Assembly (NCBI GenBank): GCA_964532925.1
Contig: CAZHIP010000001.1
Coordinates: 11,227-75,226, forward strand
Source: an uncultured Gammaproteobacteria bacterium
GTDB taxonomy: Bacteria > Patescibacteriota > Patescibacteriia > GWA2-47-26
Reading direction: 5' to 3'
DNA: 64,000 nt
The notes under the pieces are model-generated. The model worked only from the letters and a program-made list of their open reading frames with translations, made no database searches and was not told the DNA's origin. The position numbers were made by a program, and so were the translations under genes. Below, piece by piece: positions 10,817 to 52,617 of this stretch; positions within the stretch are counted from its first letter, which is position 1, and the number at the start of each line of letters is the position of its first letter.

Positions 10817-11440
10817 CTATTCTATGCTAATCGGTGTGCCAGCTTCTGCCCAATGGTAGAGTTTTTCCATATTTGAGTAGGCGACATTGATACAGCCGTG
10901 TGATCGAGGCGTGCCAAACTTGTTATGCCAGTAGGCGCCATGAATGTAGTAGTTTCCCTTGGGGTGTTTTTTGAACATGAGGTTCCATTTGGTATTCGGG
11001 AAGCTATATCCTACGCCGGTGTAGTTTACGATGGGGCGTTTGATGAGCACGCTATATTGGCCGAGTGGCGTTGGGGTGGCTCGTAACCCACTTGAGATAG
11101 GAAATTCGTCGAGTTTTTTGTCACCAAAATAGTAGGCCAACTTTTGATCTTTGAGCGTGACGGCAATACGTTTTGCAATTTTTTCTACGGAGGCGCTCAA
11201 TGGGTCGTGCCCGGCATTGACTTCAACTCCATCGGTAAATCCATCGCCATCGGTATCAGCTTTGGTTGGATCGGTGCCAAGTATTGTTTCCCAGGTATCG
11301 ATGAGGCCGTCTTTGTCGGTATCAATAGTTACGTTCACGGTAGGAGCCACGGTTACGGGAGCTGCGGCATGGCTATATTGTGGTATTACAAAAAGACTAA
11401 GTGTGAAGAATGTAAAAAACGTGAGGCGCAGTTGGTGCAT
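10817..11440 (-). CDS. secreted L,D-transpeptidase (YkuD domain) with Ca-binding DxDxDG repeats
   Basis: N-terminal signal peptide, DTDKDGLID and DTDGDGFTDG repeats, catalytic segment HGAYWHNKFGTPRSHGCINV. Confidence 0.75.
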   Translation of the reverse strand: MHQLRLTFFTFFTLSLFVIPQYSHAAAPVTVAPTVNVTIDTDKDGLIDTWETILGTDPTKADTDGDGFTDGVEVNAGHDPLSASVEKIAKRIAVTLKDQKLAYYFGDKKLDEFPISSGLRATPTPLGQYSVLIKRPIVNYTGVGYSFPNTKWNLMFKKHPKGNYYIHGAYWHNKFGTPRSHGCINVAYSNMEKLYHWAEAGTPISIE

Positions 11441-16530: not shown

Positions 16531-16953
16531 ATGAAAAAAAATCTACTAGTCTCTCTAACCGTTTTTGTGATGATTCTGGTGCTCGGTGTGGGGGTAAGTC
16601 GCAATGCTAGTGCCGCAGTGGGTAGAAACACGTGTATTATTGCAACGTGTCATGCCTCGGATAAACCTGCCTGTGCCCGAGAGACCAAGCTCAAAGGTTT
16701 GGTGTGTTCTATGCAATCAGAGGCAGCGGACTTTTGCATTTCGTTTATTAAATGTGGGGCAAACAAAAAAGGTCAGTGTGTAGTGTCGAACGATAAGGCG
16801 TTTAATACGTGTAAGTCATGTGTAACCGAGTGTTTGGGTGAAGGTGCAGCGAGCGATGCACCGCTTACCCAACGAATTAGCTGTCAGCAGCGATGTGTTG
16901 CTCTTGCAAAAGCTCCTCCGGCAAAGGTTGTGTCTGTTAAAAAAACCAAGTAA
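16531..16953 (+). CDS. small secreted cysteine-rich protein (14 Cys)
   Basis: Signal peptide [28 protein letters not shown] followed by about 112 residues containing 14 Cys. Confidence 0.5.
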
Positions 16954-31506: not shown

Positions 31507-33069
31507 CTATTTGCAACGTTTTTTGTTGCATGCAGTAGTGCATTGGCGGTCTGCATTACAAGGGGTGCTGCCACAACTCATACTGCGACCATCCAGGCGC
31601 ATACCCTCATTGCTATCATTGCACGCACTCGAGCAGTCAGAGTCTTTATCACACAGACCGCCTCTTGGAATTTTTGTTGCCTCTAAATCAGGTCTACAGT
31701 AATTTGATGAAAGGACTCGTGTGATGCATGAGTTTCCGGAACAGCACTCGATACTATTATTATCACTGCCACAGGCTACACCGGCTGCTGCACAGTTAGT
31801 TTCGGCTCCATTTGGGGTTGACGTAGTGATGCATTTGTTGTCGATGCATTGCTGGCTGGTGGGATTAGGGCAAGGTAGGCTTGCACTGCAAGTAGTAGGT
31901 TTCCATGTGCATTTGCGATCGCCATATGTACACATTCCATCTGCGCCGGAATACGCCATACAATCAGTTGGGTTCGGGTCGTTGCTCAGCGCTTGGCAAC
32001 GAGCGGCATCACCAGGTCCGCGATCGTATCGGTGAACGCGGTCGTCTCCGGTGCATTGGCAACATACATTTACTTTTGTTGCATCAGCGAGACAGGCTGC
32101 GCGCTGCTGTTCTTTTTTTGCAGCGTCCGCGGGGGTTGCTGATGCTGTCTGTGCCCATGTGCAAGGATCAAGCACTGCATGATTTAAATACCCCGCAGCA
32201 CCACATCGAGAGGCACACGATGTTCCGCTGGGTCGTGGAACTTCGATGTAATATCTTTGGCCATTATATTGGTAACCACTCTCGAGGGCGAGGGGATCTG
32301 CGGCGGGTTGTGCCGCTTCACGGCTTCGATCGGAGTATGGATCACGTGCCGCCAATGCTGCACATGGGTTTTTGCACGAACAACATCCAGCACCATTTTC
32401 CACTTGGTAGGCAATTATTTTGTCAGCTCCTCCACATTGCAGTGCGCAGGCGGCTCGATCCGCCGGACCATTCGCTGTAGCAGTGAGTTCCGATAAACCA
32501 ATAGTGCATCGTTCACTTTTGGCGGGCATTTCTTCCTGTCGAATCAGCTTGATCGGTGCCATCTGTAGGCTTAGGAGCGCGGGGTTGATGGTATAAAGGA
32601 TGGTGTATGAACCAAGTGCAAGCACGAGCCCGATGAGCGCATTCATTATCTTTTCTCGGGAGTGTTTAATCTTCCCGCTATCTCCAGCGGCAGTAAGCCA
32701 TTCAAAGCCAGCAATCACAATCATGATGCCCGCGAGTATTCCTGCTGACCCGATGAGGAATTTATAAATGATAACAATATAGTTTTGCAGGCCGGTGATT
32801 TCGGTAAGTCCAGCGAGGGGGGTGTTGAGTTTTACGGGAGGTGGGGAGGAAATGCAATTATATGTATAGGGAACAAAAGATTTGCATTCTTGGCTCGCAA
32901 CGGCAAAGCTATTTTTGTACTTTCCGGTGGCACACTCGTCTTGTTTGAAGCATTGTTGGGGAGGAGTTTGGGGGGTGGCTGGTTGTGATTGGGCGAATAC
33001 TTGAGGGGTTGCGCTATTAAAAAGAATGACGACGAGTGCCAGAATGAGAGCGGATTTTCTAAAGCGCAT
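31507..33069 (-). CDS. secreted or membrane-anchored cysteine-rich protein (~40 Cys) with a VirB2/TrbC-like two-helix module
   Basis: Signal peptide. Residues ~85-165 ([36 protein letters not shown]...[17 protein letters not shown]) form a two-TM pilin-like pattern, followed by ~345 aa with CC, CxC and CxxxC clusters. Translationally coupled to the upstream dsbA-like gene. Confidence 0.55.
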
Positions 33070-33071
33070 AT

Positions 33072-33869
33072 TTATTTACTGTTCGTAAGCAGTTTCTCGA
33101 ACAAGTCCGATGGAATCGCTCCTTCAACTTTGTTGCCGTTGATAAAAAATGTTGGGGTGCCCGCAACACCAGCTTCGGTGCCAACAGTAGTGTCGGTAGC
33201 AACTTCTTTTTTTGTGGTGGGATCAATAAGGCAGAGTTGGAACGCATTTACATTGAGCCCGATTTGGTTGGCATACGCCTGGAGGTCGGTAGCGGAGAGC
33301 TTGTCTTGGCTACCAAAGACTTTGTCATGCATCTGCCAGAAACGGTTTTGCTTGTTTGCACACGAAAGCGCAAGTGCGGCGCGTGTTGCATTCGGGTGAA
33401 TGTCGTTTAGGGGAAAGTCTTTAAAGACAAAATGGAACTTGTCGGGATACGCGAGCATGGCTTTTCGAAGGGTTTGGGAGAACGCGGCAGAGTAGGGGCA
33501 CTGTGCATCAGCAAATTCAATTATCTGAATAGGTGCGGTTGGCTCACCAAAGGTAGGGTCACCATCAGTATCGGCGATTTTGGCGATGAGTTCTGTTGAT
33601 ATCGCGGTGGTGCGTGGTAGACTTGATGAGCGAGTAAAGCCACTCGTGGTGGTGACGCCGGTGATGGTATCGCCACGACGAATTTTAACCGTATAAAAGC
33701 CCACAAGGACAATAAACGCCACCACACAAGAGGCCATGAATCCGACTAAAACACCGAGGAAAACACGCGCAGTTCGGCTCATAAAAATCTCGGGTTTGGC
33801 TTGACAAATAAGTGCTTGTAGTATATCATAATTTACTACATTGGTGTGCGCTTCGCTTGGAGCTTTCAT
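33072..33869 (-). CDS. membrane-anchored DsbA-family thioredoxin-fold oxidoreductase (CPYS active-site variant)
   Basis: N-terminal TM helix, active site AQCPYSAAF, and a cis-Pro motif GTPTFFING. Start ambiguous (ATG at 33869 or 33782). Confidence 0.6.
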   Translation of the reverse strand: MKAPSEAHTNVVNYDILQALICQAKPEIFMSRTARVFLGVLVGFMASCVVAFIVLVGFYTVKIRRGDTITGVTTTSGFTRSSSLPRTTAISTELIAKIADTDGDPTFGEPTAPIQIIEFADAQCPYSAAFSQTLRKAMLAYPDKFHFVFKDFPLNDIHPNATRAALALSCANKQNRFWQMHDKVFGSQDKLSATDLQAYANQIGLNVNAFQLCLIDPTTKKEVATDTTVGTEAGVAGTPTFFINGNKVEGAIPSDLFEKLLTNSK

Positions 33870-36044: not shown

Positions 36045-36130
36045 GCCCGGATGGCGAAATGGCAGACGCACTAGCTTCAGGAGCTAGCGGGAGCAATCCC
36101 ATGGGAGTTCAAGTCTCCCTCCGGGCACCA
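36045..36130 (+). tRNA. tRNA-Leu (anticodon CAG), CCA encoded
   Basis: GCCCGGA acceptor stem, anticodon loop TTCAGGA, long variable arm, T-loop TTCAAGT, 3' ACCA. Confidence 0.9.
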
Positions 36131-45046: not shown

Positions 45047-46203
45047 AAATCGCCATAGACGCCAGACTGTATGGTCTCAAGAACAGAGGTCTTGGGCGTT
45101 TTTTAATTGAGCATTTGAAGGGCCTGGAGTCAGTCGATGAACAAAACTCGTATTCAGTGTTTTTGAAAGAAGAAAATAAGGACGAGTATCAGCCTGCCAA
45201 AAAGAACTTTGTAAAAAAGATCTGGAATACGCCGTGGTATTCATTGAAAGAGCAGACTGATACCAAGGTCTTAAAAGAAGAGCAGGCCGACCTCTATTAC
45301 TTCCCGCACTGGAATGTGCCGATGCTCCTCGGGAAGCCGTATGTGGTGACGATCCATGACATGATTTTGTTTGATTTCCCTGATCGTCGCGCAAGTACGC
45401 AGAGTTGGTTGCGGTACAAACTGAAATACGTCGCCTTTCGCATGCTCATGGGAGCGGTACTTCGTCGTGCCAAGGCGGTCGTGGCTGTTTCCGGCTCAAC
45501 ACGCGACGCGATTTTGAAGCATTTTCCGAACACGAAGCATATTCAGGTCATCTACGAAGGTGCTCCTGAGCTTGCTCCATCGGAAGTGGTTAACCTGGGG
45601 AAGCATGGAATTCAAAAACCATATATACTATATGTAGGTGCGGCGTATCCGCATAAGAATTTGCCGTTCCTCCTGCGTTCGTTCCAAGAAGCGCGAAAAA
45701 CGATTGATTGTCAGCTCGTACTCGTCGGCCGAAAAGACTTTTTTTATGAGCGATTGGCATCCGATGCTGCGCGCTCAGGAATTGATAAAGATGTAGTCTT
45801 TTTTGGCGGCGCAACCGATGGTGAACTTGCGTATCTCTACGAGCATGCACACATGGCAGTCAGTCCGTCGCTGGTTGAAGGGTTTGGGTTTGGTGGACTT
45901 GAGGCAATGACAAAGGGTATTCCTGTTGTTGCTTCTCGGATCTCATGTTTTCGAGAGATTTTCGGAGATGCTCCGCAGTACTTTGATCCAACAAATGAAC
46001 ATGATTGTGCGCGTGCACTTATTTTGGTTTCTCGAGACGAGTCCGCGCGTACCAGCATGATTCAGGTAGGAAACACTATCCCGGTGCGATATAATTGGAA
46101 GAAGAGTGCAGAAGAATATACACATCTTTTTGAACGTTTGGTAAATAACAAGAGCGATGGAGGGTCAACACCACAACAAACGAGCGGTTCGCATCACGCG
46201 TAA
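45043..46203 (+). CDS. GT4-family glycosyltransferase
   Basis: MKIAIDARLYGLKNRGLGRF N-terminus; AVSPSLVEGFGFGGLEAM (EX7E); overlaps the previous gene by 4 nt. Confidence 0.75.
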   Translation: MKIAIDARLYGLKNRGLGRFLIEHLKGLESVDEQNSYSVFLKEENKDEYQPAKKNFVKKIWNTPWYSLKEQTDTKVLKEEQADLYYFPHWNVPMLLGKPYVVTIHDMILFDFPDRRASTQSWLRYKLKYVAFRMLMGAVLRRAKAVVAVSGSTRDAILKHFPNTKHIQVIYEGAPELAPSEVVNLGKHGIQKPYILYVGAAYPHKNLPFLLRSFQEARKTIDCQLVLVGRKDFFYERLASDAARSGIDKDVVFFGGATDGELAYLYEHAHMAVSPSLVEGFGFGGLEAMTKGIPVVASRISCFREIFGDAPQYFDPTNEHDCARALILVSRDESARTSMIQVGNTIPVRYNWKKSAEEYTHLFERLVNNKSDGGSTPQQTSGSHHA

Positions 46204-46282
46204 GGGAGTACAACCCTCACCGCACGTTATTCATTTGGGTAGATCAAAAGAGCGTGTTCGTGTGCAAAAGATAGAGAAACCA

Positions 46283-48400
46283 ATGGCACCACCGCGGTCG
46301 CTGGCCATCGAATTTGCCATTGATTCATTCCGCAATGAAATGGCGGATCGCGCTCGCAATGCGTTTCAGCAATTCAATCGCACGGCAAGTCGTGTTCGTT
46401 CTTTTGGTTCCCGTTCGTTGCGCAAAAAAAGAGAATTACTTTCGACCACAGAAGCATTGGTAGATGCTATGGTTCCAGTGCTTGAGCATGTAAAAGAGGT
46501 GGCAGAAGAGAAATTGTCCTTGCGAAAACGTGTTGCGACCTGGCTTGCGAGTCGGGTGACCACCGCGCATATTTATGTACCACCACGCTCACTTTCGATT
46601 GCCTTTTTCGTGGCAATGCTTGTATTGCTTACCTTGCCATTTGGAGTGATTCACGTATATCGCGATGTAAAGGTGCGCCAAGCTGAATTTAGGGAGAGAA
46701 AGATTGTTATGGTTGCGCTTTCCGACCAGGTAAGTACCTCATTGCGTACCGGTGACCTGGAGGGAGCGTTGCGTGCGCTGCATGCGCTCGAAGAGTCGGT
46801 GCAGGCAGCAGCAGATGCGATTGATGCAAGCGGTGTATTCAAATATGCGCCACCATTGCACCAAACACAGAACGCGTTGAAATCCGCTGTTGCGGCGCTT
46901 GGTCAAGGAAGAGTTGCTTTGGCAGGCGTACAGCGTTTTCCGTGGAATAAAGATGTGTTTATTGCAATAACCAAAACTCTTGATGCTGCAGAGAGGACTG
47001 CGTGGTACGTGGATCGCACTCGCATGGGCATTGATACAGGCCCAGCAAAGAGCTATATTCGTCTCGCAAAAGATAACCTCATGCTTGCGCAAGCATTTTT
47101 GGGGCAGCAAGACAGTCGGTATCTTGTCGTATTTCAGAACGAGAATGAGATTCGGCCGACCGGTGGTTTTATGGGCAGTTTTGCCGTGCTGACTCTCAAA
47201 GACGGTGTGTGGTCAATCGAAATGCCGTCGCAAGGATCATATGCACTTCAGGGGTGGCTCACTACTGCAGTCCGTGCGCCGCGACCATTATCACTCATCA
47301 ATCCGCGGTTTGAGTTTCAAGATGTAAATTGGTTTCCAGATTTCCCTACAACAGCAAAAAAGATTATGTCGTTTTACGAAGATGGGGGAGGGTCGAGTGT
47401 CGATGGGGTCATTGCGGTCAACAGTTCATTTTTAAATGATGTGTTGGCGTTGGCGGGGCCGCTCGATGTGAAAGAGATTAGCCCTGTAGCACTCAAGAAC
47501 GGTACCGTGGTTGAGGCGCTCGAAAAAGCCATTGCACGAGATCGTGCTACCACTGCGCCAAAAGCAGTAATGGGAGGTCTTCTTGATGCGCTTGCCACGC
47601 GATTTCAGTCAGGTGCGGTTGCGCCAATTGCTGCTGCTCGTCTTGCTGCCATTGGTCTTAGTGAAAAAAAGATCCAGCTATATTTCCGTGATGATTCCAA
47701 TCAGTCGGCTGCAGCACGATTGGGTTTTGATGGAGGTATTCCTCGTAGCGGAGATAAGGATTTTTTCATGCTTGTTTCGGCAAATGTTGCTGGAGGTAAG
47801 ACAGATGGTTCCATTCACGATGTCGTGGGCTATAAAGTATCGGTGAACGAGAATGGAGAAATGGTGGCTCATGTGACCTTGACGCGTACCCACGAAGGTT
47901 TGCGTGGAGATGCGTTGCGAGGCGGCAGAAATGTGAGCTATGTTCGGCTGTATGCCCCCTTAGGCAGTGAGTTTTTAGGGGCCAGTGGTTTCAGCAAAGC
48001 TCCTTCATGGCGATTTGAAAACCCTGAATCAACGCTCATTCCCGACGAAGATGTTCGTGCGTCAGAACTTACCGAAAAGATAGACACCAATAGTGGTACA
48101 ATTATTGCAACAGAATCGGGGAAGCAAGTCTTTGGAAACTGGTTCATACTCGACCCTGGAGAAGTAAAAACCGTACAACTTAGGTATCTGTTGCCAAGCC
48201 GTATTACCAAAGACATGCAGAATAAGTATGCGCTTATGGTTGCCAAGCAATCAGGCCGTACCACGGACTTTCATTTTACGATGAATGCACCAGGGTTTAC
48301 TATTGTCGCTCTAGACTCCCAGGAAACAAGTCGTGAGGGATATGCAATGAAACGCGCATTGACGACCGATAGTATTACTCGATTGGTGCTTACACCATAA
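46283..48400 (+). CDS. DUF4012-like membrane-anchored envelope protein
   Basis: Single TM helix then a large extracytoplasmic domain containing VFQNENEIRPTGGFMGSFAV, which I recall as DUF4012-like. Start set at the ATG at 46283, after the upstream stop. Confidence 0.45.
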   Translation: MAPPRSLAIEFAIDSFRNEMADRARNAFQQFNRTASRVRSFGSRSLRKKRELLSTTEALVDAMVPVLEHVKEVAEEKLSLRKRVATWLASRVTTAHIYVPPRSLSIAFFVAMLVLLTLPFGVIHVYRDVKVRQAEFRERKIVMVALSDQVSTSLRTGDLEGALRALHALEESVQAAADAIDASGVFKYAPPLHQTQNALKSAVAALGQGRVALAGVQRFPWNKDVFIAITKTLDAAERTAWYVDRTRMGIDTGPAKSYIRLAKDNLMLAQAFLGQQDSRYLVVFQNENEIRPTGGFMGSFAVLTLKDGVWSIEMPSQGSYALQGWLTTAVRAPRPLSLINPRFEFQDVNWFPDFPTTAKKIMSFYEDGGGSSVDGVIAVNSSFLNDVLALAGPLDVKEISPVALKNGTVVEALEKAIARDRATTAPKAVMGGLLDALATRFQSGAVAPIAAARLAAIGLSEKKIQLYFRDDSNQSAAARLGFDGGIPRSGDKDFFMLVSANVAGGKTDGSIHDVVGYKVSVNENGEMVAHVTLTRTHEGLRGDALRGGRNVSYVRLYAPLGSEFLGASGFSKAPSWRFENPESTLIPDEDVRASELTEKIDTNSGTIIATESGKQVFGNWFILDPGEVKTVQLRYLLPSRITKDMQNKYALMVAKQSGRTTDFHFTMNAPGFTIVALDSQETSREGYAMKRALTTDSITRLVLTP

Positions 48401-48410
48401 GTACGAAGAC

Positions 48411-50189
48411 ATGACCGACCAAAAACCACCCAATACAACATTGCGTTCAATTTACGAAGAAGATGGTACGCTCCCAGATATGAGCAAGCTTGATCCAAAA
48501 GGGGACCCGCGTTGGGCAAAATCATTTGGGTATTTTGTGGGTATTTTAGTGTTAGGTACTGCGGTAGCCTGGCTTGGTTTTCGTTTGTTTATACCCTCAA
48601 ACCCTGGAGATGTTGTCTTGGTCAAAATTGATGCACCTGAACATGTAACTGCAGGAGCAAAAATGAAGATCGTGCTTCATTATGAAAACAATGATCGTAG
48701 TCCGCTCGCCCTCGCGGTACTGAAGGCTCGTCTTCCCAAAGAATTTGTTCCTGAAAGTGCTTTGCCACGTTCCGACGATGACACTCTGACCAGCTGGACA
48801 CTCGGTACACTGGATCGTGGGGCCAAAGGGGATATCGAAATCCAAGGCCGTGCATTGGGTGCCATTGGAACGAACGCTCAAATCCAAAGTACTCTCACCT
48901 ATAAGCCAGCATCGTTCAACGCAGAGTTTACGTCACTCGCAAATCGTAGTTTTGTGATCGATACTGCGCCGATCGAGATCACGTTTGATGGTCCGAGTGA
49001 GGCGAGTGCTGGGCAATCAGTGGTGTTTACCGTGCGCTACAAAAATACGAGTGATGCGGCCCTTGCAAATACGCAGATTGTCTTTATCCCCGGCGCATCA
49101 TTTTCTGTAACAAAAACCAGCAAAAAACCGTTACATGATACGACATGGGCATTGCCAGCACTCGAACCAGGTGCGGTTGGTGAAATGAGTATTACTGGTG
49201 CGGTGACATCATCTGCCGAGGTAGCCACAGTGTTGCCGTTTCAAGTTATTACGCAAGTGAAACGAGAAGATATTGTGTTGGCAAAAGCTGCATACGAACT
49301 TACAGTAACTCAAGGGGATCTCGCGCTATCTATCGAACGCGACGACACAGATCCTGTGCGCATGGGCGATACTATTTCTGGTCGCATTATCGTAGCAAAT
49401 AACTCAAGTGTGCCCATCGGCGATATCAATATTCAGCTTACAAGCCCAAACTCAATTGATTGGGGTATGGCAACATCTGCGGTGAAAATATCTTCAAGCA
49501 AAGGTGGTGTGGCCTGGAGTGGGTCGGGTGTTGAAAAGTTAAAGCTTTTGCCTGCTACTGAACGTTTTTCTATTCCATTTACCATAAAAGCACCCGCAAC
49601 CACGGACCTTTCCGAAGTGGTTTTTTCTGCAAGCGCTAAGGCGTTGAAGCGCAACAATACAGCGGCAATACTCATTGCAAAGAGCGCTGATTTTTCTATT
49701 GCGATAAGTTCACATATTTCAGCCGACGGTGTTGCAATGTATTATGATATGTCGGGCTTACCCGTGGGTGCTGGACCATTACCACCCCGAGTAGGCGAAG
49801 AAACAAAATATCGCGTTCAATGGAAAATTAAAAATGGATCACGTGATTTGGCGGACGTAACCCTTTCTGCTCTTCTGGGGGAAAATGTCGTGTTTGGTAC
49901 AAAGCAGGGGGTGGGGGCAGGTGCAATTATATTTGATGCCGATACTCGTACGGTGCGTTGGGCAATGAGTCGTCTACCCTCGAATGTCTCGGAAGTCATA
50001 GCTCAATTTGATGTAGTGCTAACTCCGGTGACGAATGACCAAGGTAAGACGGTTGAGCTTTTGGCTAAAGGAGTACTAACAGCAACCGATCCACTTATTA
50101 CTGATCCGGTCAACATAGAGATTCCTCATCTGACAACTGATCTTGTGCGTGACCAAAAAGCAGTTGGGCGAGGTGTTGTCTTACCTTAA
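48411..50189 (+). CDS. membrane-anchored surface protein with repeated DUF11-like beta-sandwich domains
   Basis: N-terminal TM anchor then at least four repeat units, each with a T/S-rich beta pattern (e.g. ...TVRYKNTSDAALANTQIVF...). Confidence 0.5.
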   Translation: MTDQKPPNTTLRSIYEEDGTLPDMSKLDPKGDPRWAKSFGYFVGILVLGTAVAWLGFRLFIPSNPGDVVLVKIDAPEHVTAGAKMKIVLHYENNDRSPLALAVLKARLPKEFVPESALPRSDDDTLTSWTLGTLDRGAKGDIEIQGRALGAIGTNAQIQSTLTYKPASFNAEFTSLANRSFVIDTAPIEITFDGPSEASAGQSVVFTVRYKNTSDAALANTQIVFIPGASFSVTKTSKKPLHDTTWALPALEPGAVGEMSITGAVTSSAEVATVLPFQVITQVKREDIVLAKAAYELTVTQGDLALSIERDDTDPVRMGDTISGRIIVANNSSVPIGDINIQLTSPNSIDWGMATSAVKISSSKGGVAWSGSGVEKLKLLPATERFSIPFTIKAPATTDLSEVVFSASAKALKRNNTAAILIAKSADFSIAISSHISADGVAMYYDMSGLPVGAGPLPPRVGEETKYRVQWKIKNGSRDLADVTLSALLGENVVFGTKQGVGAGAIIFDADTRTVRWAMSRLPSNVSEVIAQFDVVLTPVTNDQGKTVELLAKGVLTATDPLITDPVNIEIPHLTTDLVRDQKAVGRGVVLP

Positions 50190-50250
50190 CTATCTATATA
50201 ATGTTTTTGCTGTTTCAGCAGGAGCGTCTGCTGAAACTTCCTATATCCAT

Positions 50251-52617
50251 ATGGCAGATTTTTTGAGCGCACTCTCTTCTTCGCGGTCTAGGCGGACGAT
50301 AAAACCTAAGCGTGTAATCCCGGCTTCTCATGAAGGTAGTGATGAGGAGATGCGTTTGTCTGACGCGACGAATCCCGCAAGTGCGCCGCCACGATTAAGC
50401 CGTGCGTTGTTTGTGGTGCTCATCACACTGATTGTGGGTGTAGTGACAATTCCGCTTGCCTATATGCCTAAGGCACTCGCAATTTCTGAATGGCTCCGTC
50501 AGACCATTCTTTTTGGTGTTGCATTAGTTGGGTTGGTGGCCACCTTAGTCCACATTGTTCGTCGGAAGTCACTCAGTCTTCCGCGCCAATGGTTCACATT
50601 CGCACTCGTTGGGGGCGTTTCGCTCTCAGCAATAGTGAGCGCGCTGATGAGCAAGACTCGCTATTTGTCATTGTATGGATATGATGGGGTTGAAGGGTAT
50701 GCGGCAACTACCTATGTTGCTGCAGCGATTGTGATGATATTGGTTGCTATTATTGGTCATGAGCGACGCAAGCTCTACTATGCCTGGCTTACCGGTGGAG
50801 CAGTGGTAATGGGTCTTTCGGTGCTTTCTTTGTATCATGTGAATGTCTTTCCTGGGGTTGGTATTTCGAGCTGGACACCTTTTGGTGGCACATTGGCACT
50901 GGTCGTTATGGCAGCTCTTACGATTGTCGGGTCATATGGTGTTCTCACGGAGTATCGACCATCGCGTGCACTGTATGCCATAGCAGCCCTTGCTGCCCTC
51001 TGTAGTTTTATCGTTCTTATTTCGGTGAATAATCGGTATGGGTTTTTAGTGCTTGCTGGTGGATCTCTTGTCTTTTTGATTGGTGCAGCATTTCGAAAAG
51101 AAGAGATTTTGTCGAGATCAATGATGGCGCCGTGTATCGGCCTGTTTCTTTCGATTGTCTATTTATTTATGGCAATCCCGAGCATTGTGTCTACGCCGCT
51201 CGAGGTGAATATATCTCTCAAAGAAAGCGTGCGAGTTGCAGGTGCAGCACTGCATGCAAATCCAGTCTTTGGGTCAGGGCCAGGAACGTACGCCAATCAG
51301 TTTTTACGTTTGCGTGGTGCGGAGGTCACTCGCCAAGGCTTTGGTAATATTGATTTTCACAGTGGCGCAGGGATGGTCCTTACTCTGTTGGTTACTGTTG
51401 GTATTTTTGGGGGTCTCCTTTGGACAGCGCTGGTGCTCTGGTCATTATGGATGAGCGGTAAAGGTATTGTTCGGGATCGCCGAACAGGGTCCTATCTAGC
51501 GATTCAGTCTGTTTTGTTTACGGTACTTGTTGCTACGTTGTTTTTACCTGTCAGCCCCACTATCTTGTTTACCGCCGTACTGTTTCTCGGCTTGAGCCTT
51601 GCAGAAGGCACGTATCGCGAGATTTCCATGGCTCGCTCTGAGCGTGGAATAGCACTTCGTAATGGTGCTGTTGCACTTGTGTTACTTATGCTTGTTATTG
51701 GAACGGTCGTGGTAGTGCGAAGAACAGGCGGAGTATATTTTGCGCTCCGTGGTGCTCGTGCATTTGCACAAAATGCCCCCACTGCTATTGAGGCCATGAC
51801 AAAGGCTATCGTATTTGATAACGGTCATGATGGTTACTGGCGAATGCTTTCTGATGCACGGCGGACACAATTGAACACGGCAAGCGCTCAGCTAGGCAGC
51901 GGTGATGTTACGCCAGAAGCAAAGACAGCGCTGCAATATATGAGAGCTCAAATGCTCGATGCTGCAACTCGCGCGACAATGTTGGCACCAGGTTCGGCGC
52001 TGAACTGGGCGACGCTTGGCCAGGCAAAACTGGTTTCTGGGGCGTCTAATCAAGATGCACTCACCGACGCGCACAGTGCGTTTGGGCGTGCACAAGAATT
52101 AAACCCTACAGATCCAGGCGTGGTCACAGCGCTCGGTGTTACCGAGCGGCTTCAGGCATTCGTGAGTGCAAAAGGTGAGAAGCCTGATAATACCAAAGCA
52201 GTTGTGTTACTCGAGCAGGCAATTGCATTACAACCTGCGTATGTACAGGCGCACTTAGAATTGGCCCGTTTGTATGCTTCGTCTCTTGAGGAGGAGAAGG
52301 CGTTCGTTGCATATGGTAATGCTCGCTTGGCGGCGCCATATGATCCGCGGGTTGCCTATGAGGTTGCTATGTATTTGCGCGAAGGTAAGAAAACCGTAGA
52401 AGCAATTGCCGAACTTGAGCGTGCGGTGAAGCTTGCACCAAATTTTGTGGATGCTCACCTGGTACTGTCTGATCTCTATGTCTTTACAGGTGATTATGCG
52501 AACGCCATTCTTCATACAGAAGCCTTATTGAAACTCTACCCAGACAGCAAAGAACTTCAGGCTCGGCTTGAATCGTTGAAAGAAAAAGCCGCCGCACCAC
52601 CAAAGAAAAAGAAATAA
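50251..52617 (+). CDS. O-antigen ligase/polymerase-like multi-TM protein with C-terminal TPR repeats
   Basis: About 10-12 TM helices over the first ~470 aa, then TPR-like repeats (AHLELARLYASSLEEEKA, AYEVAMYLREGKK..., AHLVLSDLYVFTGDYANA). Confidence 0.55.
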   Translation: MADFLSALSSSRSRRTIKPKRVIPASHEGSDEEMRLSDATNPASAPPRLSRALFVVLITLIVGVVTIPLAYMPKALAISEWLRQTILFGVALVGLVATLVHIVRRKSLSLPRQWFTFALVGGVSLSAIVSALMSKTRYLSLYGYDGVEGYAATTYVAAAIVMILVAIIGHERRKLYYAWLTGGAVVMGLSVLSLYHVNVFPGVGISSWTPFGGTLALVVMAALTIVGSYGVLTEYRPSRALYAIAALAALCSFIVLISVNNRYGFLVLAGGSLVFLIGAAFRKEEILSRSMMAPCIGLFLSIVYLFMAIPSIVSTPLEVNISLKESVRVAGAALHANPVFGSGPGTYANQFLRLRGAEVTRQGFGNIDFHSGAGMVLTLLVTVGIFGGLLWTALVLWSLWMSGKGIVRDRRTGSYLAIQSVLFTVLVATLFLPVSPTILFTAVLFLGLSLAEGTYREISMARSERGIALRNGAVALVLLMLVIGTVVVVRRTGGVYFALRGARAFAQNAPTAIEAMTKAIVFDNGHDGYWRMLSDARRTQLNTASAQLGSGDVTPEAKTALQYMRAQMLDAATRATMLAPGSALNWATLGQAKLVSGASNQDALTDAHSAFGRAQELNPTDPGVVTALGVTERLQAFVSAKGEKPDNTKAVVLLEQAIALQPAYVQAHLELARLYASSLEEEKAFVAYGNARLAAPYDPRVAYEVAMYLREGKKTVEAIAELERAVKLAPNFVDAHLVLSDLYVFTGDYANAILHTEALLKLYPDSKELQARLESLKEKAAAPPKKKK

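Follow-up and report, generated by a model that had tools for sequence, protein, structure and literature searches.

A gene pair for a DsbA-like enzyme and a cysteine-rich membrane protein

The window studied here is the whole stretch of DNA that was analysed, 64 kb of contig CAZHIP010000001.1. Two adjacent genes on its minus strand encode a thioredoxin-fold oxidoreductase of the DsbA/MdbA type and, directly downstream, a cysteine-rich protein whose membrane hairpin resembles the pilins of type IV secretion systems (T4SS). An earlier note, made from the sequence alone, had suggested that the second protein has the enzyme as a partner of its own, for oxidative folding or for isomerisation. Both open reading frames (ORFs) lie at the coordinates given there, and the features of the locus are the following.

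33072–33869, minus strand: DsbA/MdbA-like thioredoxin-fold oxidoreductase; longest ORF, 265 aa
33678–33776, minus strand: N-terminal transmembrane (TM) anchor of the DsbA-like protein, residues 32–64 of the 265-aa ORF, from hydropathy
33489–33500, minus strand: active-site tetrapeptide C124-P-Y-S127, a monothiol CxxS site (TGC CCC TAC TCT)
33147–33161, minus strand: cis-Pro loop G-T-P-T-F, within GTPTFFING
33070–33071, minus strand: 2-nt spacer (AT) between the TAA of the DsbA-like gene (33074–33072) and the next ATG (33069)
31507–33069, minus strand: secreted, membrane-anchored protein of 520 aa with 40 Cys and a T4SS_pilin (VirB2-like) hairpin
32992–33069, minus strand: Sec-type signal peptide, residues 1–26 (MRFRK, hydrophobic core, VFA/Q), from hydropathy and sequence
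32791–32991, minus strand: small N-terminal domain, predicted extracellular, residues 27–93, with C40, C46, C62 and C72
32563–32790, minus strand: two-helix membrane hairpin, residues 94–169, PF18895 module with a basic loop predicted to be cytoplasmic
31510–32544, minus strand: C-terminal Cys-rich domain, predicted extracellular, residues 176–520, 36 Cys, orphan
31696–31794, minus strand: cystine-knot-like spacing CX6CX8CCX4CX9C, residues 426–458, regular-expression match

The first ORF ends 2 nt ahead of the start of the second, and the junction reads AGT AAA TAA AT ATG. Given this spacing, the two genes almost certainly form a co-transcribed operon; translational coupling, judged from the 2-nt distance only, is plausible.

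The first protein is an anchored enzyme of the DsbA/MdbA type

The longest ORF of the first gene matches two Pfam families of the thioredoxin fold: Thioredoxin_4 (PF13462; E 5.7e-28, 98.6 bits against a cutoff of 23.2, profile positions 2–163 of 165) and DSBA (PF01323; E 7.7e-22, 78.5 bits against a cutoff of 25.6). The fold that had been assigned to it from motifs is thereby borne out. In a profile search of the PDB, the nearest match is C. diphtheriae DsbA/MdbA (4pwp, E 3e-35), with BdbD (E 2e-26) and Wolbachia alpha-DsbA1 also near. ScsC and copper-resistance proteins are found among its PDB relatives as well.

The protein has only one TM segment, at its N-terminus, where the Kyte-Doolittle window mean rises up to 2.79; this anchor is kept in the orthologs. 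Charged residues flank the segment on both sides; by homology, the catalytic domain would face outward. The sequence of the cis-Pro loop of the DsbA family is in place, with G237, T238 and P239 nearly invariant in the enzyme alignment (A2). Two further cysteines, C170 and C213, recur throughout the enzyme family; presumably they pair with each other, as a structural disulfide of the helical domain. The membrane anchor, the CPYS active site and the GTPTFFING motif listed in the earlier note were all recovered in the sequence and its hydropathy.

The true coding sequence is probably shorter than the longest ORF, namely 33072–33782 (236 aa) with its start at Met30, because the three closest orthologs are 234–235 aa long and begin at the Met30 position. 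The 29 codons upstream of it (33783–33869, minus strand) are probably untranslated. This extension contains a sigma-70-like site on the plus strand, TTGACA-17-TATCAT (33801–33829, 11/12), directed toward the divergent secG gene; in a scan for promoters and terminators, sites were no more numerous than in shuffled sequences.

The active site carries a single thiol

The window enzyme lacks the CxxC dithiol of the DsbA family and reads CPYS instead. In an alignment of its homologs, CPYS, CAYS, CTHS and CPFS are the sites of the nearest clade, and CPxC is that of members further away. The serine is encoded by TCT, TCC, TCG or TCA in orthologs from different assemblies. Such a use of four different codons indicates that the serine is under selection. 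Together with the ordinary TCT codon of the window gene, it rules out both a selenocysteine and a sequencing error at Ser127.

Among 37 pairs of a DsbA-like and a pilin-domain gene (defined below), the active site is CxxS in 12 (CPYS, CPNS, CAYS, CAVS) and CxxC in 25. As two thirds of the pilin-linked homologs retain CxxC, the ancestral partner would have been a normal oxidase. In a neighbour-joining tree, which is rough and carries no support values, the CxxS enzymes of the window type group together in a single clade, which the CPFC-type pilin-linked enzymes adjoin.

We thus have a naturally conserved CxxS site in a thioredoxin fold of the secretory compartment. CxxS thioredoxin-fold proteins carry no oxidising equivalents and are suited to disulfide shuffling, and one of them, Eug1p, requires CxxC paralogs in vivo (PMC2195995). 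In AGR2 and ERp44, the CxxS site forms mixed disulfides with specific Cys-rich clients, for example mucins (PMC12384036). The earlier note had called the CxxS site unusual and had read it as favouring a role in isomerisation or in mixed disulfides, which is in line with this published work.

Architecture of the Cys-rich protein

The second ORF was described in the earlier note as a protein with a signal peptide, a two-helix module and an ectodomain of ~345 aa that holds ~36 of about 40 cysteines, and all of this was found again. The cysteines number exactly 40, with four at positions 40–72 and 36 beyond residue 175; at 7.7%, the Cys content lies far above that of the other ORFs of the window. 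The residues on the two sides of the VFA/Q boundary of the signal peptide, A26 and Q27, are invariant across eight homologs.

In the N-domain, C40, C46, C62 and C72 are invariant columns in both alignments of the protein (A1 and A3), and AlphaFold2 (AF2) models short β-strands there, with a predicted local distance difference test (pLDDT) score of ~60–70. Hydropathy places the hydrophobic helices of the hairpin at residues 97–129 and 140–162, with the basic loop between them; in the AF2 model, the helices span residues 91/94–126 and 131–169 at a pLDDT of 81–88. The signal peptide, if cleaved, and the two-helix topology would put the N-domain and the C-terminal 345 residues both outside the cell. 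The whole N-terminal module is common to the homologs P0002–P0008.

The hairpin resembles T4SS pilins

The hairpin matches the Pfam family T4SS_pilin (PF18895) over residues 94–157, with a score of 27.4 bits that is marginal yet above the cutoff of 26.6. Relatives with the same module score higher on this profile, up to 43 bits at locus L025 and 35.9 bits at L006. The VirB2/TrbC resemblance noticed earlier thus holds by way of PF18895, as a borderline case. It does not hold for the family that had been named, TrbC/VirB2 (PF04956), which stays below its cutoff (E 0.31, 11.7 bits against 27.9). The NCBIfam model of a Mycoplasma 'pilin-like conjugal transfer protein' reaches 28.5 bits, under its cutoff of 40.

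The members of PF18895 are considered to be VirB2-like T4SS pilins of the Candidate Phyla Radiation (CPR), encoded in variable arrays of 2–11 genes, often near virB4 (PMC12102498; bioRxiv 10.1101/2025.01.22.634366). The window protein shares their topology of a signal peptide followed by two hydrophobic helices with a short basic loop. The pilins of the family are small proteins (~100–130 aa, typically ~110 aa) that consist of nearly nothing beyond the hairpin, whereas the 520 residues of the window protein include a four-Cys N-domain and a 36-Cys ectodomain of 345 aa. It is encoded by a single gene in a housekeeping context and not in an array, and among the genes of the 64-kb window none could be recognised as coding for a T4SS ATPase or channel. 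The small array pilins have 0–2 cysteines, none of them in the mature part, and no DsbA neighbour.

A hidden Markov model (HMM) built from the hairpin module retrieves arrays of small T4SS_pilin genes at two of the related loci, L023 and L024. These are tandem arrays (L023:2288–4437 and L024:5559–7705) of about six genes for proteins of ~110–130 aa, some ORF calls being shorter, and correspond to the 'VirB2 arrays' known from the CPR. They are essentially Cys-free, and no DsbA-like gene lies nearby.

Structural comparison adds little. With the model of the N-terminal module, Foldseek found no PDB match at E < 1; 8dfu, a conjugation pilin from Aeropyrum, was placed 27th (E 2.7), in a comparison where any helical hairpin matches weakly. 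A sequence profile search of the PDB with the pilin module found nothing. On a minimal reading, the hairpin would be a membrane anchor of pilin ancestry; it would anchor the protein or, possibly, let it be displayed. The role of 'adhesin or pilus-tip' once suggested for the 520-aa protein is speculation. Pam pili, a recently described pilus system of the CPR, were considered as a relative and ruled out: their pilins are Ig-like and joined by donor strands, an unrelated architecture.

The ectodomain is an orphan with conserved cysteines

Between the window protein and its homolog P0003, all 40 cysteines align (4 + 36), at a non-Cys identity of 45.6% in the ectodomain; P0003 carries one extra four-Cys insert. 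The cysteines are thus conserved across homologues, as the earlier note had required of its proposal. Counted in the mature proteins of the clade, the cysteines always come to an even number (40, 40, 44, 40, 36, 36, 34, 34 and 40). This constant parity is as expected from full disulfide pairing and disfavours a permanent covalent adduct. The ectodomain has only two histidines in 345 residues, so few that a metal-binding role is disfavoured.

The ectodomain (residues 176–520) has no match in Pfam or NCBIfam, and an exhaustive, filter-free phmmer search against 1.84 billion cluster representatives returned its own cluster only. In the homologs P0004–P0008, the N-terminal module is 58–74% identical to that of the window protein, whereas the C-terminal domain is at ~20–26%; evidently, these are different Cys-rich domains. 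The case of P0004 suggests a replacement of the ectodomain by recombination: the N-terminal module is 72% identical and the ectodomain 26%, with a sharp break in identity just past the hairpin.

Other large hairpin proteins carry other domains. One with the PF18895 hairpin has a Peptidase_C39_2 ectodomain (L012:4562–6580, E 5e-17), a second has a sub-threshold glucosaminidase-like domain (L014:9305–11203), and two more show VanY-like traces (L006:5617–6828 and P0019). Taken together, the sequences suggest a constant chassis of signal peptide, N-domain and hairpin that is combined with interchangeable extracellular payloads, in general across Patescibacteria.

Within the ectodomain of the window protein, the segment at residues 426–458, CX6CX8CCX4CX9C, fits the knottin spacing C-x(2-7)-C-x(3-11)-CC-x(1-17)-C-x(1-19)-C and is kept in P0001–P0003. 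The knottin class also requires the connectivity 1-4, 2-5, 3-6, and AF2 confidence is low in this segment, so an inhibitor-cystine-knot module is a lead only. A disulfide map could not be drawn by structure prediction as had been proposed: the AF2 model of the full protein, built from an alignment of eight sequences, has a mean pLDDT of 51.5 and yielded no map and no fold assignment. An internal duplication of a 'CxxxCG...CCxC' module, suspected by eye, was rejected when local alignment proved no better than with shuffled sequences (z = 0.39).

The gene pair is conserved across Patescibacteria

We scanned the conserved N-terminal module against GTDB genomes and JGI metagenomes, and searched the loci so obtained with two HMMs, one for the enzyme and one for the pilin module. 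In total, 80 loci were fetched; 61 of them were evaluable, being unique and extending upstream for 800 nt or more. A pair was defined as a DsbA-like gene on the same strand whose stop is at most 200 nt away from the start of the first large pilin-domain gene. The related loci in GTDB species representatives all belong to metagenome-assembled genomes (MAGs) of Patescibacteria/CPR. By these relatives, the window is assigned to an ultrasmall bacterium of the Patescibacteria.

The closest relatives repeat the arrangement of the window. P0003 (50% identical) and P0006 (33%) each come right after a DsbA-like gene with a CPYS site, at a distance of 1 nt and 3 nt respectively, in the same order of SecG, DsbA, pilin-domain gene and UvrA. 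P0007 has this context too, and the 234-aa protein encoded upstream of it reads CPYS and matches the DsbA HMM at E 4e-72, with no precomputed Pfam match. Further away, a CAYS enzyme (P0029) precedes a 498-aa PF18895 protein with 40 cysteines, which is again followed by UvrA. The gap between the paired genes in ortholog loci is 1 nt in L003, 3 nt in L005, 1 nt in L027 and 183 nt in L025.

Over the whole set, a DsbA-like gene adjoins the pilin-domain gene on its upstream side in 37 of the 61 evaluable loci, and the distance from stop to start ranges from -35 to +183 nt, mostly below 35 nt. Conversely, every one of the 43 DsbA-like ORFs present in the 80 loci (~495 genes) stands directly upstream of a pilin-domain gene; two of these had escaped the automatic pair rule owing to overlapping start calls. 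Pilin-domain proteins are richer in cysteine at loci with DsbA (median 18 vs 12, Mann-Whitney p = 0.008).

Two contexts, unrelated to each other, harbour the pair. In the window-type synteny, UvrA lies downstream (21 loci). In the second, DsbA is followed by one to three pilin-domain genes and then by RadA and RecG (14 loci). Since it is kept in both, the pair itself is the conserved unit across Patescibacteria, and its retention in close and distant relatives answers the doubt, raised at the outset, that the genes might be paired in this genome only.

At the 14 loci of the second type (L006, L012, L013, L014, L017, L045, L049, L051, L052, L067, L068, L075, L080 and L083), the gene immediately ahead of the DsbA-like gene, in the same orientation, encodes a conserved membrane-anchored protein of 402–426 aa (M426); in L013 it is truncated at the contig end. 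By eye, this protein resembles a TolB/PD40-like β-propeller, and in that lineage it may belong to the module as its third component. Separately, three Patescibacteria-type pilin-domain loci, L008, L009 and L024 (CAYNUS010000009.1, CAZYLV010000006.1 and CAZCGQ010000006.1), come from MAGs titled 'uncultured Gammaproteobacteria bacterium', which is probably a taxonomic mislabel.

Genomic surroundings of the pair

The pair is flanked by UvrA downstream and lies near SecG, a family-5 solute-binding protein, a tRNA and RNase J. The remaining window also has a housekeeping character, with IF-2, LeuRS, FtsK, a RecA-like protein, glycosyltransferases, thioredoxin and thioredoxin reductase. It holds a single DsbA-like ORF. 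A mobile element or conjugative island at the locus is ruled out by the housekeeping flanks with their deep synteny; no relaxase or VirB4 was seen.

Several other features of the window were recorded.

36045–36127, plus strand: tRNA gene (Rfam RF00005, 53.9 bits), between the solute-binding-protein gene and RNase J
16531–16950, plus strand: 140-aa protein with a signal peptide and 12 Cys, no Pfam match, adjoining no thioredoxin-fold gene
10820–11440, minus strand: secreted L,D-transpeptidase (YkuD, E 7e-21) with bacterial TSP3 repeats in its N-terminal part
46157–52614, plus strand: three consecutive large envelope proteins (one with DUF4012, one with DUF11, one rich in TPR), 3' of a glycosyltransferase cluster, Cys-poor with 0, 0 and 2 Cys, unlike the 40-Cys protein

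A putative disulfide shufflase and its proposed client

We favour, with moderate confidence, the reading that an MdbA-type oxidoreductase has become specialised here in shuffling disulfides, as a monothiol enzyme, in a surface protein that is co-expressed with it, knotted by disulfides and hypervariable. A dedicated folding partner, as the earlier note had it, is thus the best-supported account of the locus, and the support comes from genomic association.

In this mechanism, the first gene would give rise to a membrane-anchored, outward-facing enzyme of the DsbA/MdbA type, co-translated with the product of the second gene, which would be its principal client. The client would leave by way of Sec and stay attached to the membrane through its VirB2-like PF18895 hairpin, with an N-domain of two disulfides and a C-terminal domain of 18 disulfides, both outside the cell. 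Having no resolving cysteine, the CPYS enzyme would be unable to store an oxidising disulfide. Its single thiolate would attack wrong disulfides in the nascent ectodomain and form a transient mixed disulfide, from which it would be released by another cysteine of the client. Such shuffling would act on the 20-disulfide client as it emerges from the adjacent Sec channel, while the oxidising equivalents would be supplied elsewhere, by a CxxC DsbA or VKOR, by oxygen or by small disulfides. The end product would be a rigid, fully disulfide-bonded and fast-diversifying surface module, most plausibly destined for contact with a host cell.

Several points weigh against this interpretation. Adjacency as such speaks for co-inheritance and not for client specificity, and 24 of the 61 evaluable loci have no adjoining DsbA, some of them in spite of 20–30 cysteines (L038, L039). 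No obvious Shine-Dalgarno-like sequence precedes the second ATG. The AF2 model of the ectodomain is of low confidence and gave no disulfide map. No CxxC DsbA, VKOR or DsbB turned up in the 64-kb window, where VKOR and DsbB were not specifically searched. Finally, a single-Cys enzyme can still be an oxidase, as reported for Streptococcus gordonii SdbA.

This last point corresponds to an alternative in which the CPYS enzyme is itself a net oxidase, with one cysteine that is charged as a low-molecular-weight mixed disulfide or as sulfenic acid and passes its charge to the client. The single-Cys variants of SdbA would be its precedent, the window shows no second oxidase within the limits just given, and an obligate episymbiont could draw small disulfides from its host or surroundings. 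We nevertheless consider it unlikely. In SdbA, it is reportedly the C-terminal cysteine that suffices (Davey et al. 2016), whereas the N-terminal one is kept here; CxxS homologs of protein disulfide isomerase (PDI) require a separate CxxC oxidase in vivo (PMC2195995); and the CxxC majority among the pilin-linked homologs speaks for a normal oxidase as the ancestral partner. The same work on PDI homologs bears on the proposal that the DsbA-like protein is a general envelope oxidoreductase, in that a CxxS enzyme would be unable to act as a general oxidase (PMC2195995). Adjacency would then reflect co-expression with the most demanding substrate or an inherited core synteny. The locus does lie amid housekeeping genes (SecG, UvrA, RNase J, the solute-binding protein) in an old synteny, the enzyme family is CPR-wide (Meheust et al., bioRxiv 10.1101/335083), and the window encodes a second secreted Cys-rich protein, at 16531–16950. 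We rate this account as somewhat unlikely all the same, given that the pair is kept in two unrelated contexts and that all 43 DsbA-like ORFs adjoin a pilin-domain gene.

Two further explanations change the role of the thiols. As a thiol-dependent holdase or retention factor, the CxxS protein would tether the unassembled Cys-rich protein at the membrane through a mixed disulfide until its handover, for instance to a T4SS. A membrane-anchored enzyme next to a pilin-like hairpin protein would suit such a task, for which ERp44 and AGR2 offer a precedent (PMC12384036), as does TraF of the F plasmid, a thioredoxin fold without CxxC that functions in F-pilus extension (PMC11315126). However, the even Cys counts spare no cysteine for a long-lived tether, and the 64-kb window shows no T4SS genes nearby; we hold this to be very unlikely. 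It is even less probable that the ectodomain cysteines bind metals, in the manner of metallothioneins or of Fe-S or Zn sites, with a thioredoxin-fold protein that handles metal or redox stress like ScsC. The very high Cys density and the presence of ScsC and copper-resistance proteins among the PDB relatives of the enzyme would be in line with it. Against it stand the extracytoplasmic position of the domain by topology, its two histidines, a Cys parity that is always even and a partner from the oxidative-folding branch of MdbA and BdbD.

Relation to known systems

Operon-encoded DsbA paralogs are known to serve specific substrates, for example Salmonella SrgA for the fimbrial subunit PefA. Paralogs of this type retain CxxC and work beside the housekeeping DsbA/DsbB in the periplasm. 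As in the window, the oxidoreductase gene of the SrgA-PefA couple adjoins the gene of the fibre or surface protein that it serves. MdbA and FimA form a further analogy of an enzyme with a pilin.

Actinobacterial MdbA and B. subtilis BdbD are membrane-anchored, DsbA-like enzymes with which monoderms fold exported proteins, pilins among them. The window enzyme has in common with both a TM anchor at the N-terminus, a Thr-cisPro loop and its setting in a monoderm. It differs from them in its CPYS site, where they have CxxC, and in its operon with one specific Cys-rich client. An MdbA-like family enriched in the CPR has been described, in which 92% of the members have CxxC, VKOR is the commonest neighbour and type IV pilins are the proposed folding substrates (Meheust et al., bioRxiv 10.1101/335083). 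Here, instead of VKOR as neighbour and a type IV pilin as client, a pilin-domain gene adjoins.

The F plasmid encodes the T4SS-linked thioredoxin-fold proteins TrbB and TraF, with TraN, TraU and TraH as putative Cys-rich clients; TraF has no CxxC (PMC11315126). These proteins are DsbC-like and periplasmic, belong to diderms and are encoded inside the tra operon, whereas the window holds an anchored MdbA-like enzyme in a chromosomal two-gene module whose client would be the pilin-like protein itself. Eug1p (CLHS/CIHS), AGR2 (CPHS) and ERp44 (CRFS) are natural CxxS proteins that cannot oxidise unaided and are suited to shuffling disulfides or handling clients through mixed disulfides, in the case of AGR2 with mucins as the client. 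Their homology to the window enzyme is limited to the fold; the latter is bacterial and probably exofacial and has the DsbA architecture with its helical insertion.

Full-text literature searches that combined CPR/Patescibacteria, DsbA, cysteine-rich and pilin found no description of the gene pair. A survey of T4SS covers the small VirB2-like arrays and makes no mention of DsbA, disulfides or Cys-rich fusions (PMC12102498; bioRxiv 10.1101/2025.01.22.634366). While the parts are known, the operon of enzyme and client, the architecture of a pilin hairpin with a Cys-rich ectodomain and the recurrent monothiol site appear to be undescribed.

Significance for Patescibacteria

A broader proposal can be made, which we regard as doubtful. 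Proteins in which a VirB2-like hairpin is fused to exchangeable disulfide-knotted ectodomains, each with its own MdbA-like enzyme (CxxS in about one third of the lineages), could form a phylum-wide and hitherto undescribed class of host-recognition or attack determinants presented by T4SS. The ectodomains may be orphan and Cys-rich here, and peptidase-like or peptidoglycan-hydrolase-like elsewhere. By virtue of the hairpin, such proteins might be drawn out of the membrane by the T4SS and shown to the host cell, either at the tip of a pilus or along a filament.

CPR bacteria are obligate episymbionts. In the one species tested, the T4SS of the CPR is essential, its role being described as 'completely unknown' (PMC11665869). 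Because it links a hairpin of the T4SS-pilin type, hypervariable disulfide-rich domains and a probably dedicated folding enzyme, the module supplies concrete candidates for host-contact proteins, along with a simple two-gene experimental system. The recurrent and selected change from CxxC to CxxS, next to a 20-disulfide client, would be a natural test of disulfide isomerisation in monoderms that have no DsbC/DsbD pathway. Enzyme-client pairs of this kind could also aid the production of disulfide-knotted proteins.

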